This document shows positions 57,841-64,000 of a DNA stretch of 64,000 nt, piece after piece. The stretch is from positions 34,919-98,918 of the forward strand of contig RBZT01000703.1 in assembly GCA_003693705.1 (NCBI GenBank). The letters are read 5' to 3'. The stretch is from Polymyxa betae A26-41. Taxonomy: Eukaryota; Protista; Endomyxa: Phytomyxea. A program made the position numbers and the translations under genes. Under the pieces are notes generated by a model, which was not told the origin of the DNA, ran no database searches, and saw nothing but the letters and a program-made list of their open reading frames with translations. How positions within the stretch are numbered: the first letter of the stretch is position 1; each line of letters begins with the position of its first letter.

Positions 57841-60570
57841 TCAGCTCCTCTCAACATACGATGGGTTTCTCTTGACTTTGCGTGACCGCTTTGGTCGATG
57901 CGGTTTCTCAGAGCACGAGTCATCGTCTGAGGTGTCTTCAAGAATTATAGGACTGGGATCAATTTGGTCGTCAGGGCAATCAGGCGCTTCGAACCCCGTC
58001 TTTAAGTTTTTATCCGAGTTGTTCGGCGCCAGCGTCCCATTGCTCGCAATTGATCGTGATGGTCCTGATACTGAATTGTGATAAGATCTAGAAGGGAGAT
58101 CCTTGGTGTTATCGTCGTCGCTACATGAAGCTTCCTCATCCTCTGCATGCCTGTTTCTCTTCTTGATATATTTCGATGGAACCTCCTCTGTGTGCTTTCT
58201 CTTATTCTTTGGCTTCCTGTACGATGGGCGGATGTCCTCCTCCTCCTCATCAGAATCGGAATCTTCACAATAATCGTTGTCGTCCGATTCATCGTCGCTG
58301 CTGCATTCTTCTATCTGCTTTGTCGCCTTGGGTTTACTTTGGTGGGTCATCATGTTAGGGTGAAGGTTAGCTGAGCGTCGAGATACCAAAGGTGAGATCA
58401 AATGATCTTTCGATGATGGCGATCGCGTAGCCTTTAACGGCAACCTGAATGAGGCGATTGTAGCATTGACAGACTCGGGGCGAGCCTGAACGGGCGCGGG
58501 ACCAAGCGTAGGCTGTATAGGTGGCAGCGACGGTGAAGACGTTCGTGAATGATGCATGCTGTGAAAGATTGAGGCCCTCGATGGAGATGTGCCGTTGGCA
58601 GATTGCAGTGTTTGGGCGAAGTTTGGTGGCAATTCCGAGTAAGAGTTGTCAGCCGATGAATTGTTCGAATCGGGCAATGATGACCTTGGAAAAGGTTTCG
58701 AGGAGTCGTTCGTAGTCGAATTTCCAGACGTTGGAGAAGGTCTCGAGGACTTGCTCGTAGTAGAGTAATTTCCAGACGTTGGAGAAGGTTTCGAGGACTT
58801 GCTCGTAGTAGAGTAATTTCCAGACGTTGGAGAAGGTTTCGAGGACTTGCTCGTAGTAGAGTAATTTCCAGACGTTGGAAAAGGTTGCGAGGAGTTGCTC
58901 GTTGTCGAATTTCCAGCAGGAATCTGTCCTATTCCTTTGGCAGAGCCTGCGTTGTTTGACTTTGCTTTAGGATAAGACCCCTTTGACAACGTGGCGGAAG
59001 AATTCTGCATGGGAACCGAAAAACTAATATTCATTGGCTTGTTGGTAGCATTGTTGGCATTAACACTGATCGAGATCAGAACAGGACTGGACGAGTTATC
59101 CGAAGAACTTGTTGGTGTAGGCTCTGGTCCGTCCGAGGTTGCCGACTTGGCATCTGTTGCAGCCTGTTTTGACATTCTCCCTACTTTCGACAGGGGTGTA
59201 GGACTTTCTCCATCTCCAGTCTCTACTGGTGCTGGTGACGATGTGCCCACAACTGGTGAAGGTGTGGCAGCAGCGGGCGTTGGTGATGATGCCGGTTTCG
59301 CCTGGGGTTGGCCCTTCGGTTTGAATGTCGGCCCTGTTTTCGGAAACTCCATGTCGATAGGCACTGAGGGAGTCGATGCAATTAAGGAAGCTAAAGGATA
59401 TTCGGAATCCGATGGCGAGGAAGCCAGTGGCGTCCCTGCTCCAGTTCCCGCATTCGGAGATGGCTCATTTGCAGATGTCCCTGGACTTGGCGAAGTTGAT
59501 GGTGTCTTTGCTCCAGAATTCGGGGATGGAGCAGTTGCTGATGTTCTTGGACTCGGCGCTGGTGAATATACTGCTGAAGAGGTTGACGGCGTTGCTTGTG
59601 GAGCTGAAGGTGCTGTCATTGGCGGTGATGCTGGTGCAGAAGCTGGTGAAGTTGCAGGTGCAGAAGCAGGTGAAATTGCAGGTGCAGAAGCTGGTGAAAT
59701 TGCAGGTGCAGAAGCTGGTGAACTTGCAGGTGCAGAAGCTGGTGAAATTGCAGATGCACTAGCTGAAGATCCTGCTGGACTACTAGATGCCACAGCTGCC
59801 GCTGCTGCTGTTTGCCGTGTCGATGATGAACCTGTAGGAGGGGTTATTGCCGACATTGAAGCCCCAGAAGGTGTGGACACCGCGGCCGCAGCTGAAGGCA
59901 TGCCGGCACTGCTACTTGACATCATCTCTGACGCCAGCCCAGTGGCCGACATTGACATCTGGTTAATGGCAGAAGCAGTAGGGCCCGAAGGCAGTCCAGC
60001 CGATGAAGTTTGCGACATTTGAGATGACGGCATCATAGGTGGCATCTTCATCCCAGCAGATGATGGCATCATTTGCATTGGTGATGGAGCGGGCTGCATC
60101 ATCCCAGCAGGAGCAGAAACTCGCAATGCACCCGCTGGACCTTTCAAGCCCAGAGACATCGCCGGTACAGGCGCCCCCATTGGATTTGGCATCAAGGTTC
60201 CAGATTGAAACGGTGGTACAGCTGCAGAAGGAATTTGCTTCATCGGAGGTGCCTTAGTCATAGGCGGCGCCGGGGTGAACATAGGCGTGGGTGGTGGCGT
60301 CATCATAACGAGAGGATTCGCTGGGATCTCCATTGGAGTCGGAGGAGGCGTCTTAGGCGGGTCGAGCATCTGAGCGAATTGCTCGTCTTGCACGACAGTC
60401 CATGGGACCTGATCGGGTTCCAGCTGGATGCTGAATTGAGCTGGTTGAGGTGCGTTTTGAACAGCTGCAGGTTGGGGTGCGTACGGCGGTCCTGCAGGTT
60501 GAGGTGCGAATTGAGCTGATATTACATAAGAAGTTAGGAGCAGGATGAGCGCCAGGCTCATCCATCGCAT
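57841..60570 (-). CDS. Secreted Ser/Pro/Ala/Thr-rich mucin-like protein (909 aa, intronless)
   Basis: Signal peptide MRWMSLALILLLTSYVISA; P/M-rich then S/P/A-rich repeat regions; acidic and basic C-terminal blocks. Confidence 0.85.
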   Translation of the reverse strand: MRWMSLALILLLTSYVISAQFAPQPAGPPYAPQPAAVQNAPQPAQFSIQLEPDQVPWTVVQDEQFAQMLDPPKTPPPTPMEIPANPLVMMTPPPTPMFTPAPPMTKAPPMKQIPSAAVPPFQSGTLMPNPMGAPVPAMSLGLKGPAGALRVSAPAGMMQPAPSPMQMMPSSAGMKMPPMMPSSQMSQTSSAGLPSGPTASAINQMSMSATGLASEMMSSSSAGMPSAAAAVSTPSGASMSAITPPTGSSSTRQTAAAAAVASSSPAGSSASASAISPASAPASSPASAPAISPASAPAISPASAPATSPASAPASPPMTAPSAPQATPSTSSAVYSPAPSPRTSATAPSPNSGAKTPSTSPSPGTSANEPSPNAGTGAGTPLASSPSDSEYPLASLIASTPSVPIDMEFPKTGPTFKPKGQPQAKPASSPTPAAATPSPVVGTSSPAPVETGDGESPTPLSKVGRMSKQAATDAKSATSDGPEPTPTSSSDNSSSPVLISISVNANNATNKPMNISFSVPMQNSSATLSKGSYPKAKSNNAGSAKGIGQIPAGNSTTSNSSQPFPTSGNYSTTSKSSKPSPTSGNYSTTSKSSKPSPTSGNYSTTSKSSRPSPTSGNSTTNDSSKPFPRSSLPDSNNSSADNSYSELPPNFAQTLQSANGTSPSRASIFHSMHHSRTSSPSLPPIQPTLGPAPVQARPESVNATIASFRLPLKATRSPSSKDHLISPLVSRRSANLHPNMMTHQSKPKATKQIEECSSDDESDDNDYCEDSDSDEEEEDIRPSYRKPKNKRKHTEEVPSKYIKKRNRHAEDEEASCSDDDNTKDLPSRSYHNSVSGPSRSIASNGTLAPNNSDKNLKTGFEAPDCPDDQIDPSPIILEDTSDDDSCSEKPHRPKRSRKVKRNPSYVERS
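58720..58915. repeat. 48-bp coding tandem repeat, about 4 copies (SSKPSPTSGNYSTTSK)
   Basis: TTTCCAGACGTTGGAGAAGGTTTCGAGGACTTGCTCGTAGTAGAGTAA recurs head-to-tail. Confidence 0.92.
59630..59757. repeat. 24-bp coding tandem repeat, about 5 copies (SPASAPAI)
   Basis: GCAGGTGCAGAAGCTGGTGAAATT recurs head-to-tail. Confidence 0.92.
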
Positions 60571-60682
60571 TATGCTTGATCGACTTGGACGTTAAATATG
60601 GTTTTTGCGATACCTGCTTGAGTCACGATCGGTTTTGTATCTTGAGTCAAATACCGAAGTTTGAGTGATAGGTTTAATACAA

Positions 60683-61952
60683 TTATATCATATCGGTCAT
60701 TAATCGACGATGTTTTTGTGACAACGTTGGGATGTCGTATGGAGTTGGCGCTCGAGAAGCTGCCGTCTTTGCTGACAGCATCATACTTTTAATCTGGGCA
60801 TACTGATCCCAATCGTCGTGAATTGGTAGATCGTCTTCCTCGATCGGGGTGATCAACTGAAACCTGTTGTTGTTCTGACGCTCGAGAATCAATATTTGAC
60901 AGTTGGTCAGGTTATGCGTCCTCTAGAGTGGGATTTCATCAATTGTTCCTTTTCGTTAGTTATCTTGGCTTTACCTCGAATTTCTCAAATGACCAATGTA
61001 AAAATCTCATCAGGAAGAGTCGGCACTAAATTACACTGAATTTATAAACATTGAGAATCTTGCTTTTCTCGTACTGTTAAACCATGAGATATGATGACGA
61101 TATTCGGGGATGGATTTGAAGAGAAATCTCGACTACTCAACGTCAATTGAGGATATCAGGAACATCAAGTTTACTTACAATAACGATTCGAGAAAGTTTG
61201 ATACGCGATCAAAGACGTCAGCGCCTGGAGTCCGGAAATCAATGATGTATGAAGCGATTCTGATAAGATCTACCGGATTCGCCGGCAGGTATCCCTATCT
61301 TTATCAGTACCATTTAGAATAATTATCGCAGATCTCATACTTACTGTAAAAGAATGACCCGAACCGAGAGCGAAGACGCCTGCCATTGAGATTCTGAAAC
61401 AATACAATCGCGATTGAGCGTTTCTCTCCCTACCTGCATTCCTCAATGATCTCGTGATCCTGAAAGTTGCCCTAAATTGCGATCAGACAAACCTTCGATG
61501 TATGAGGAAACAATCCTTTACCCAATCCTGCTCGCGAAGACGGGGCTCTTCTCGCCATGTGAATTGAGCTTCGTCGAACGATTTCGCCACCATTTGGAAG
61601 GTTTGCCTGGTCCTTTGGTACGGGCTAACCCAGAACCGAACGCGCTCGTCGCCGATCATTTCCTTCAACTCTCTACCAGCCTGTTCGGCTTGAACCAGAC
61701 CATTCACCTAGCCTTCATACTCAGTAGATTTCTTTGCATGACATCAACGGCCATTACCGTTAACGGAATGGAATGATCAGGGATGAACTGGAATAAGTGC
61801 TGGTCGACATTGCCTTCGCTCTCTGCATGCCGTAACAAATAGATTCGCGAAGGCCGACACGGCCGTTTACAATAACGCCAGATTTTATATAGACACCAGA
61901 TATTGCAGCAGATTCCAGTGGCGATGGCGGTCGGCATGGCATACTTCTGCAT
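60683..61952 (-). CDS. Histidine phosphatase/phosphoglycerate mutase family protein (Det1-like), multi-exon
   Basis: IYLLRHAESEGN, FWVSPYQRTRQT, EEPRLREQDWGNFQ, RFGSFFY, GESGADVFDRVSNFL, IVIISHG. Confidence 0.92.
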
Positions 61953-62067
61953 GAAAACGACGACGCCTTAATGGCTCCAGCACGGTTGAAAGTTCGCTGA
62001 CCCAGGCCGTGTATGAATGGCAGCTGCCTTGCTAACCGTACTTGGAATGTTACGGTTGTGCTGCGTC

Positions 62068-63188
62068 TCACTCAGCTCGATTGTAACGTAATTCTTCACG
62101 AAATCGTTCGTAGCAAGCAGACCTTAGATGGCTGAGATCGTGATGCCTATCATCCAGCCCCGGGCGACCAGTATCGTCATGTTTAGCCAATATCTTCGCT
62201 AATTTACCCTTGAATGAAACCATCGATTGCTTCATATTGTATAATATATTTTCAATTACACACAAACCAAATTATAGCGTCCCAAGTTCATTTTCCATTG
62301 GGTAAACATCAAATTTATGGTTTCGGTCGATAAAACTGCAATATCTCAAACAAAAATTACAAAGACGAGAACTAATTAAATATATTTATTTATTTTGGGC
62401 CACTGCTGCTCCCACAATTTATAAAGTTTAGGATCGAACGGCTCTGTAAGCCGTTCATACACAGCGTAACGGCAAGCATCGCCATTACGCTGTGCAACGA
62501 ATCGATAGTACACTCGAACTTTCGAATGACTAGAAATTTTGTACAGAACTGCTTGTACAAGTTGCCGAGCTCGACTGGGACATGGTACGTGCTGGTACTT
62601 ATCGCAACTTTCGTTGACATAAGCCTGAATATAATTCATTAGAATATTGATTTCTAGAGGATTACCAAACTTGCCTCTAGACAACCATCAGCTTGTGACT
62701 TTTTAAATAGAAAAAGTTGAGAGTGTCCTCGCCCCTTATCCATTTTCAATTCTGCCATGGAGTTTCTACGATCAGATAGTAGATTCTGTCGGTCCAAGAC
62801 ACTACAGACATGTCATTATACAATTCCAAAAATTAAACAATGATATGTACCTGATGATGAACGCATCCGCGGTCGATATCAATCGATAGTGATTCGACTC
62901 CAGTGTCTGATCACCATCACGCATTGTTTTATACCTATTATAATTTAGAACAGTGTAGAAATTTTAACAGACACTTTTTTTTTGGTCTTTAGAGACGTAA
63001 CCAATTATGAGGTCTTCATCGAACCATAAATTATGGTAATTGGTACTCTTATCGCGTTTAATATGCGATAGAAATAATGCAGTATCGGTAGAGTATCGAC
63101 TGTACTCAGAATCATTCAGGACATCATGTTCGTCCTGCAATTGAGCAGTATAGCTAGCACCTTCTGTAACTTGAATACCAGAATGATA
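62068..63188 (-). pseudogene. Decayed intron-containing host-type gene, 5'-truncated at the virus-like segment
   Basis: Chain of exon-like frames (GIQVTEGASY...DLIIG; YKTMRDGDQ...; GKFGNPLEINILMNY...; ...EELRYNRAE*) separated by intron-sized gaps with damaged donors and an in-frame stop. No family recognised. Confidence 0.5.
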
Positions 63189-63562
63189 TTATTGAAAATC
63201 CACATAAGACCGATGACCCGAAAACGTTCTTATTTGACCAACAGCAAAAAAAGAGAGAAAAAGTAGAATATGAAGTCCCATTGTATGATATGGACTTCGA
63301 AGAGTTCCAAACGCTGATAAATAAGATGAAATCGGCACTGCCAAACATCCACAAAGATACAATGTTAAAAAAACTACGAAATAAACTAAAAATGATTACT
63401 GGAAATGATAAAATTGTAATCCATTCGCTACGAATGGTTTATGCTTACCTAATGTATGATGAGAGTGATAAAATCACACCCTTCCCGACATTCACCCAGC
63501 GCCTACTCGGGCACGACCATTCGTCGACATCCGTCCATTACAACCGCCTCAACATCGTCTAA
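63170..63562 (+). pseudogene. Protelomerase (telomere resolvase)-like tyrosine recombinase, C-terminal catalytic half only
   Basis: Frame open from 63170 (130 aa): FLFDQQQKKREKVEYEVPL...IHSLRMVYAYLMY...FTQRLLGHDHSSTSVHYNRLNIV. The first catalytic Arg and the N-terminal domain are missing. Confidence 0.75.
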
Positions 63563-63870
63563 TTCATATCCCTATTCTTATTGTTAGTTTCTCTCGAGCA
63601 CCATCGCAAATTACCTAATCTATTGTCCGTTCTTATCTTGTTGATGTGGTCTATCTCTTTCAGATGTTGGGGATTGGGGACGAACTGCGTCATCAGCAAT
63701 CGATGGATGTAGTGATTTCGCTTCCTCCCATTCTTATAAAGAGACACCCGCAAGTATCCGTCCTCGTTTGTCCAAGGTTTGATTACTATTCCATGGCTGT
63801 TTTTGATAATTCCCTTTTTATTGATTTTATATAGGTCTTCGTAGTTCTTTAAATCTACGTATCCTTTCAT
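63559..63870 (-). CDS. NUMOD4-HNH homing endonuclease (I-HmuI-like)
   Basis: YEDLYKINKKGII...DGYLRVSLYKNG (NUMOD4); YIHRLLMTQFVPNP...EIDHINKIRTDNRLGNLRWCSRETN (HNH). Confidence 0.93.
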   Translation of the reverse strand: MKGYVDLKNYEDLYKINKKGIIKNSHGIVIKPWTNEDGYLRVSLYKNGRKRNHYIHRLLMTQFVPNPQHLKEIDHINKIRTDNRLGNLRWCSRETNNKNRDMN

Positions 63871-64000
63871 TACTATTAACTACTAAAAAGACTGATAAAG
63901 TTTTTTCTCGACACCGACCATTATTCGTCCAGTTTATGACCATTTCCGGAGAGCGTTGGGTTGTTTTAGGGTTATTTTGCCTTTGTAATAATCGTCCAGC

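Follow-up and report, generated by a model that had tools for sequence, protein, structure and literature searches.

Enzymes with the resolvase fold have been described in bacteria, in N15-like phages and in a small number of giant algal viruses. The closest described counterparts of the enzyme family reported here are the telomere resolvases TelA of Agrobacterium, TelK of phiKO2 and ResT of Borrelia (Pfam PF16684), whose GRRxxE, FxGQxK, YxVP, R and LGH...Y motifs recur in it with order and spacing unchanged. Tyrosine recombinases have His as their third catalytic residue, whereas TelA and ResT have Tyr (accessible text of PMC3558466); a residue other than His at this position is the usual trait of resolvases rather than a proven requirement. 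Residues of the type of Tyr201 and Arg205, the hairpin residues of TelA, are poorly conserved even among resolvases, according to the same text. TelA(107-442), which is without the N-terminal domain, is still able to resolve telomeres, and in vitro it joins telomere sites in Holliday junctions as well (accessible text of PMC9111995), so that the fold does not fix the reaction.

Eukaryotic DNA viruses likewise carry a resolvase-family gene, namely phaeoviruses (EsV-1 and the Ectocarpus EVE) and EhV-86. Phaeoviruses integrate, and beside the resolvase they have an integrase as a distinct gene, together with an internal telRL-like site at which fold-back reads occur (accessible text of PMC13236599). 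Both are giant viruses, however, and the separate integrase and internal telRL-like site of phaeoviruses were not seen in the element described below. A second point of comparison is the Polinton-like viruses (PLVs), which often insert with the help of a tyrosine recombinase encoded close to one end (available portions of PMC4642659, PMC10120064, PMC12220804 and bioRxiv 10.64898/2026.06.19.733378). Those with an OLV11-like Yrec are multi-copy endogenous protist DNA elements, with the recombinase near an end and sporadic homing endonucleases (PMC4642659 and PMC12220804, same portions).

A search of the open literature and of preprint main texts found no report that places a resolvase-fold enzyme in an element of Polinton-like type or in any other small element integrated in a eukaryote, the Ectocarpus phaeovirus work being nearest, and nothing on plasmodiophorid Polinton-like elements or on Plasmodiophora brassicae with Nucleocytoviricota. 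The strings 'resolvase', 'telomer' and 'hairpin' do not occur in the main text of two 2026 PLV preprints or of the PgVV, Tetraselmis and Yutin papers. In the visible part of the PMC10120064 supplement, the Plasmodiophora and Polymyxa rows read 1 in a column that we take as capsid hit, its header lying outside that part, and Table S4 has one hit for Polymyxa betae. Here we analyse a window of 64,000 nucleotides from P. betae A26-41 (contig RBZT01000703.1), whose right edge holds a truncated member of the enzyme family within a repeated element (Table 1).

Results

The window holds the second half of a recombinase gene

The earlier note had described, from the letters and their open reading frames, an AT-rich intronless segment encoding a protelomerase-like recombinase. 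Translation of the 130-aa plus-strand frame confirmed all of the motifs it had named, FxxQQKKR, YEVPL, HSLRxxYA and LLGHDHSSTSVHY. When a profile of 19 relatives that excludes the window protein's own clade was scored on the 2024 window frames of at least 20 aa, the fragment reached 109 bits (E 2e-32), far beyond chance, and the runner-up 6.1 bits. The ORFs of the segment are indeed without introns, although a minus-strand splice donor lies inside the recombinase frame; AT-richness does not mark the element, as 63169-64000 (38.1% GC) equals the adjoining host DNA (38.0% in 62300-63168; 44.8% in the window up to 61000).

The frame opens straight after a stop codon, with its first ATG only at 63290. 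Homology to relatives begins at ~63185-63200, and the sequence upstream matches nothing. What remains is the C-terminal half with its Lys, His-x-x-Arg, His and Tyr, without start, DNA-binding domain, linker helix or the Arg of GRRxxE. Because the start and the catalytic Arg motif are missing, the window copy would be inactive. By Pfam, the fragment on its own reads as ambiguous, with ResT-TelK_cat at 21 bits (cut-off 27) and Phage_integrase at 17, both below their cut-offs, and its own predicted structure is poor (pLDDT 48.6). A word search with the fragment found no relative longer than itself, and a second search found one of near its own length; phage proteins gave no match.

Table 1. Features at the right edge of the window (positions of the 64,000-nt window).
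Feature	Position	Strand	Basis
Host gene-like region with in-frame stop	62379..63168	-	Spliced exons, low-copy paralog family
Segment spliced out in RNA-like runs, 288 nt	63161..63448	-	Splice joint 63158->63447
Apparent left terminus of the element, 30-nt leader	63169..63198	.	Paralog break, second flank, depth steps
5'-truncated telomere-resolvase-family tyrosine recombinase	63170..63562	+	Frame, motifs, Pfam, profile of relatives
Intact NUMOD4-HNH endonuclease gene, 103 aa, ATG to TAG	63559..63870	-	Pfam, PHROG and I-HmuI match
Possible third gene entering from the right, last 21 codons and stop	63934..64000	-	TAA at 63934-63936; depth 7-10x

Intact relatives point to a minimal resolvase-fold enzyme

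A full-library search with the fragment returned 15 matches, 12 of which were aligned; P0011, P0016 and P0017 were dropped as long proteins with many short matches, P0016 being a TPR protein by domain scan. A profile search returned 14 matches, 13 of them with a precomputed PF16684 assignment, and added 11 relatives. Intact relatives measure 241-334 aa, mostly ~250 aa, and are without the extra N- and C-terminal domains of TelA, TelK and ResT. The ResT-TelK Pfam cut-off was passed by 8 of 13 scanned proteins, which are all 8 full-length relatives (37-74 bits), as against one of 13 for Phage_integrase. Against PDB, the family profile gave E values of 7e-12 to 4e-8 for TelA, TelK and ResT and 7e-4 for XerA, and hhalign gave 98% for TelA/TelK versus 85% for integrases. 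Contrary to this lean, NCBIfam scored the full-length relative P0021 higher for archaeal XerA (40 bits) than for TelA (18 bits), both far below cut-off.

The model of P0021 is confident (pLDDT 92.6, 24 sequences) and shows a DNA-binding domain, linker helix and catalytic domain as in TelA and TelK, an arrangement that is absent from the window copy. TelA was its best Foldseek match. Whole-length alignment over TelA 110-411 covered 246 of 252 residues at Z 20.2 and rmsd 3.7, followed by TelK (18.2), the ResT catalytic domain (14.4) and the best integrase (11.8), Z-scores that come from a re-comparison of Foldseek's best 1000 matches. Among viral models, the EhV-86 resolvase-domain protein came top (E 2e-9, 20% identity, 378 aa), and VHML ORF1 also leads. 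NCBIfam apart, these profile and fold comparisons support a family that is telomere-resolvase-like rather than an ordinary integrase. It is a predicted minimal resolvase-fold enzyme, of which the window has the second half only. The same motifs and fold would point away from the recombinases of DIRS elements and Cryptons. The family also differs, in a by-eye comparison with two OLV11-like Yrec sequences in the PMC4642659 supplement, from that type, since both are without GRRxxE and FxGQxK.

In a tree of 32 rows, with references trimmed to the matched region, the window protein groups with P0004, P0008, P0005 and P0012 (100/99), and the deep branches do not place the family inside or beside the bacterial resolvases. 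Unlike TelA, TelK and ResT, the family is represented here in a repeated element of a eukaryotic chromosome, in the window by a truncated copy. Contigs from viral, metagenome and prokaryote sets held no close relative with genomic context (queries: fragment, P0013, A7, P0030 and P0012; A1 and A8; A4), and a motif scan gave 50 loci, none of them a family member. Separately, query A4 and the family FxGQxK motif found seven N15-like phage resolvases at 23-37% in IMG/VR viral contigs (L001-L007), each within 1.4 kb of a contig end and pointing inward; L006 begins with a 24-nt palindrome. A root-metagenome RNA run showed a share of 0.06, which is no evidence of habitat.

The active site combines integrase-like and resolvase-like traits

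Most intact relatives have the catalytic set R-K-H-R-H/W-Y, of which the window copy is without the first Arg. At the third catalytic position, the His of H-x-x-R, His is present in 21 of the 22 family rows that reach it; in the same alignment none of nine bacterial resolvases has His, with Lys or Ser instead. The family thus has His where TelA, TelK and ResT have Tyr, Lys or Ser. As this integrase-type residue is kept, an integrase role appears at least as likely as hairpin formation. Tyr201 and Arg205 of TelA align to non-matching residues in the family profile. TelA(107-442), the protein with both activities in vitro, corresponds approximately to the span that the family covers.

At most nine residues follow the catalytic Tyr in 17 of 21 rows. 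The Cre C-terminal helix, mentioned in the accessible text of PMC9111995, builds the recombining tetramer, and because this tail is short, a helix of the Cre type would have no room. Four rows (P0023, P0025, P0026 and P0027) form a sub-clade in which Gln replaces the second catalytic His and FxGQxK is altered.

The element belongs to a diverged repeat family with a precise left end

Depth was summed over contigs and compared with nearby single-copy DNA in two DNA-like runs from different studies, X1 and X2. Over 63175-63842 it was 22-43x (X1) and 15-33x (X2) the single-copy level, where summed contig depth is not equal to copy number, and over the last 160 bases of the window it was 7-10x. The many sequence variants among the copies indicate a diverged repeat family, and diverged copies also occur within single-depth contigs of 11.5-57 kb.

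A paralogous host sequence that has no insert departs from the window directly after 63168 (X1, X2, X11), and an unrelated flank of at least 255 nt joins exactly at 63169 (X1, X2). The leader is found at other loci too, and the window locus is the only one where it is joined to the interior of the recombinase gene, through a 3-nt microhomology at 63196-63198. X2 contigs at ~3x single-copy depth cover exactly the leader and then stop, and a single-depth X1 contig (63169-63249) connects it with the gene interior. At 63196, a depth of ~9-15x enters from the upstream codons of the intact gene, an intact-type join; by eye, contigs of other copies run on upstream of 63196, 63236 and 63240 with GRRxxE codons as loose ends. 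From these data we infer that the leader is a true element terminus and that a deletion private to the window locus removed the 5' half of the recombinase gene. The element shows one exact end, the left one, with two different flanks, and a multi-copy depth. A gene split by integration in the style of SSV1 was rejected for most copies because the ~9-15x depth shows the intact join.

Some copies have other structures. In X3 and X8, a loose end before 63452 joins Arg-motif codons, apparently in frame, to the region near the protein end, as in another internally deleted copy or an RNA form. A diverged single-depth copy joins 63471 and 63882 on opposite strands (X1, X2), so that some copies are rearranged, seemingly without the HNH gene at that place.

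The earlier note had proposed an integrated virus or linear element with hairpin ends. Integrated foreign-type DNA is what we find; a telRL-like palindrome is absent from 62000-64000, including the 832 visible element bases, where the best candidates have imperfect arms of 10-11 bp, no better than in the rest of the window. Arrays of the three telomere-repeat units tested are absent from the window. Not noticed before were the truncation of the gene, the multi-copy repeat family, the base-precise left end at 63169 and the integrase-type His.

The element lies in a eukaryotic chromosome and is spliced to host sequence

By eye, the window has alpha-tubulin- and dynein-like frames, and its GT-AG introns measure 46-54 nt, marking the host as a eukaryote. 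The element is inserted at the end of an intron in the host gene-like region, which matches no Pfam family at E < 0.01. Its part at 62379-63160(-) has three spliced exons in one phase, an in-frame stop beside a T run and low-copy paralogs; the intron at 62625-62674 is GC-AG. It is possibly a disrupted gene or one for a ~150-aa protein. Further left lie a host gene of the histidine phosphatase superfamily (60683-61967(-); Pfam His_Phos_1 E 1e-8), with seven introns of 46-54 nt in RNA-like runs, and a 916-aa intronless Pro/Ser/Ala-rich ORF (57841-60591(-)) with short peptide repeats in tandem and a hydrophobic N-terminus. Depth over 59000-60560 of this ORF is very high in X3 and X8; the product is possibly a secreted mucin-like protein.

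X3 and X8, which we take as RNA on the basis of ten splice-like joints, remove a segment whose AG acceptor (63161) lies in host DNA, 7 nt outside the left end, and whose GT donor (63448) lies inside the recombinase on the antisense strand. X3 and X8 contain the joint and X1 and X2 do not; in X5 a loose end shows this join. Since this cryptic GT donor of the element is spliced to a host acceptor, element DNA forms the first exon of a host-side transcript, which ties the element to the host chromosome. An X3 contig (63133-63465, 3 differences) bridges the junction with 36 nt to the left and 297 nt to the right; an X1 contig with 89 nt on the host side and 30 nt on the element side falls one nt under the bridging rule, and X2 has no bridging contig. 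The earlier note had considered contamination; the X3 contig across the junction and the splicing in X3, X8 and X5 argue against it.

A homing-type passenger and a third frame

The HNH gene that had been described tail-to-tail with the recombinase is intact from ATG to TAG, and the overlap is 4 bp (63559-63562). Its protein matches Pfam HNH_3 (E 4e-10), with NUMOD4 below the cut-off (E 0.04), and PHROG 959 (E 1e-28). It aligns to the N-terminal 100 residues of I-HmuI (chain 1u3e, E 3e-10), an enzyme of 174 aa whose C-terminal ~70 residues are missing from the window protein. Other copies differ in sequence upstream of the HNH gene (loose ends at 63862-63878). Likely, this gene is a free-standing homing-type passenger. 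Relatives at two loci lie, by eye, in ordinary tailed-phage-like gene sets and without a family recombinase. The end of a third ORF, also anticipated, is present; its 21 residues have no Pfam match, and at 7-10x single-copy depth it counts as part of the repeat family. The visible part of the element, which ends at the window edge (64000), has no capsid, ATPase or replicase gene.

As to class, the top ESM clusters (0.94 for the fragment, 0.98 for P0021) are 75-90% viral, with Preplasmiviricota the commonest phylum among the four (fragment) and ten (P0021) members of known phylum, a lead only; PF16684 is found in 45% of the members of the P0021 cluster. It is from this one language-model lead that the likely Polinton-like class is drawn.

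Discussion

Our tentative reading, to which we give somewhat less than even probability, is that an endogenous DNA element present in many copies, likely a Polinton-like virus, reaches into the window with the left end of a copy that has undergone an internal deletion; the enzyme of its intact copies, ~250 aa long and with a predicted resolvase fold, likely acts as the integrase. The intact enzyme would bind the terminal site of the element, cut through a 3'-phosphotyrosine bond and carry out strand exchange of a circular element form with host DNA, for which hardly any target homology, or none, would be needed; exact ends at numerous loci would be the outcome. At the window locus, a subsequent deletion would have joined the terminus to the gene's interior. 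With the 5' half deleted, movement of this copy would depend on enzyme supplied by another one. We count the precise end with two flanks, the 9-15x intact-type join and the 15-43x depth over 63175-63842 as support for mobility. Against this reading, the predicted fold is clearly that of hairpin-forming enzymes, the short tail after Tyr would leave out the Cre-type helix, and the top viral match of the model is to a giant-virus protein of EhV-86. The closeness of the recombinase gene to the terminus is known from the deleted copy only. As phaeoviruses pair a resolvase with a separate integrase, an integrase may moreover lie beyond the window.

A possible but rather doubtful alternative is that the intact enzyme works as a genuine telomere resolvase in a linear, hairpin-ended element in the style of N15 or phaeoviruses, integrated by a separate integrase or by side reactions of the resolvase (hairpin fusion, strand exchange). 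The whole-length match of the P0021 model to TelA and TelK, linker helix included and 6-8 Z units above any integrase, speaks for it, as do the EhV-86 and VHML ORF1 fold matches, the short tail, the retrieval with FxGQxK of seven N15-like phage resolvases near contig ends, one with a starting palindrome, and the phaeovirus precedent with its fold-back reads (PMC13236599, accessible text). However, the integrase-type His in 21 of 22 rows and the lack of a telRL-like palindrome in 62000-64000 argue against hairpin formation, as does the mismatch at Tyr201 and Arg205, the latter tempered by the poor conservation of these residues (PMC3558466, accessible text). Many copy variants and similar depth ratios in two studies also fit dispersed chromosomal copies better than one episome.

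Still less probable, and in our view unlikely, is that the segment is a piece of an inserted giant virus, or a DNA transposon or plasmid without a capsid, that carries resolvase and HNH genes, the resolvase having a secondary role. This would account for the EhV-86 match and for the lack of a capsid gene in the visible part, and recombinase-encoding PLVs of cryptophytes seldom have HNH genes (PMC12220804, available portion). In contrast, at least ten similar copies with a precise end would suit a small mobile element, the top ESM clusters point to Preplasmiviricota, and the relatives are compact (241-334 aa, versus 378 aa in EhV-86). Contamination or mis-assembly of the junction is very improbable: although X2 has no contig over it and the X1 contig, from what is possibly the source run of the assembly, reaches only 30 nt into the element, the X3 contig spans it, three runs splice element sequence to the host acceptor, and diverged copies lie within single-depth contigs of 11.5-57 kb.

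Beyond the reading of the element as a Polinton-like virus with an integrase, a broader idea may be entertained as a speculative and improbable one: that the family marks small DNA viruses of eukaryotes that form a widespread group as yet undescribed, in which a ~250-aa resolvase-fold enzyme with a restored integrase His has a dual use, in hairpin-ended linear genomes and in host insertion. If true, the enzyme would stand between protelomerases and integrases as a surviving intermediate, amplified here in a protist genome. As the window copy is a dead fragment, the value of this locus itself is limited. The family, a natural and minimal one that combines a predicted resolvase fold with the integrase His, could be used to test what decides between hairpin formation and recombination, and it might yield a compact enzyme for making closed linear DNA. 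It would also tell by what means certain small DNA viruses of protists copy their ends and become integrated.
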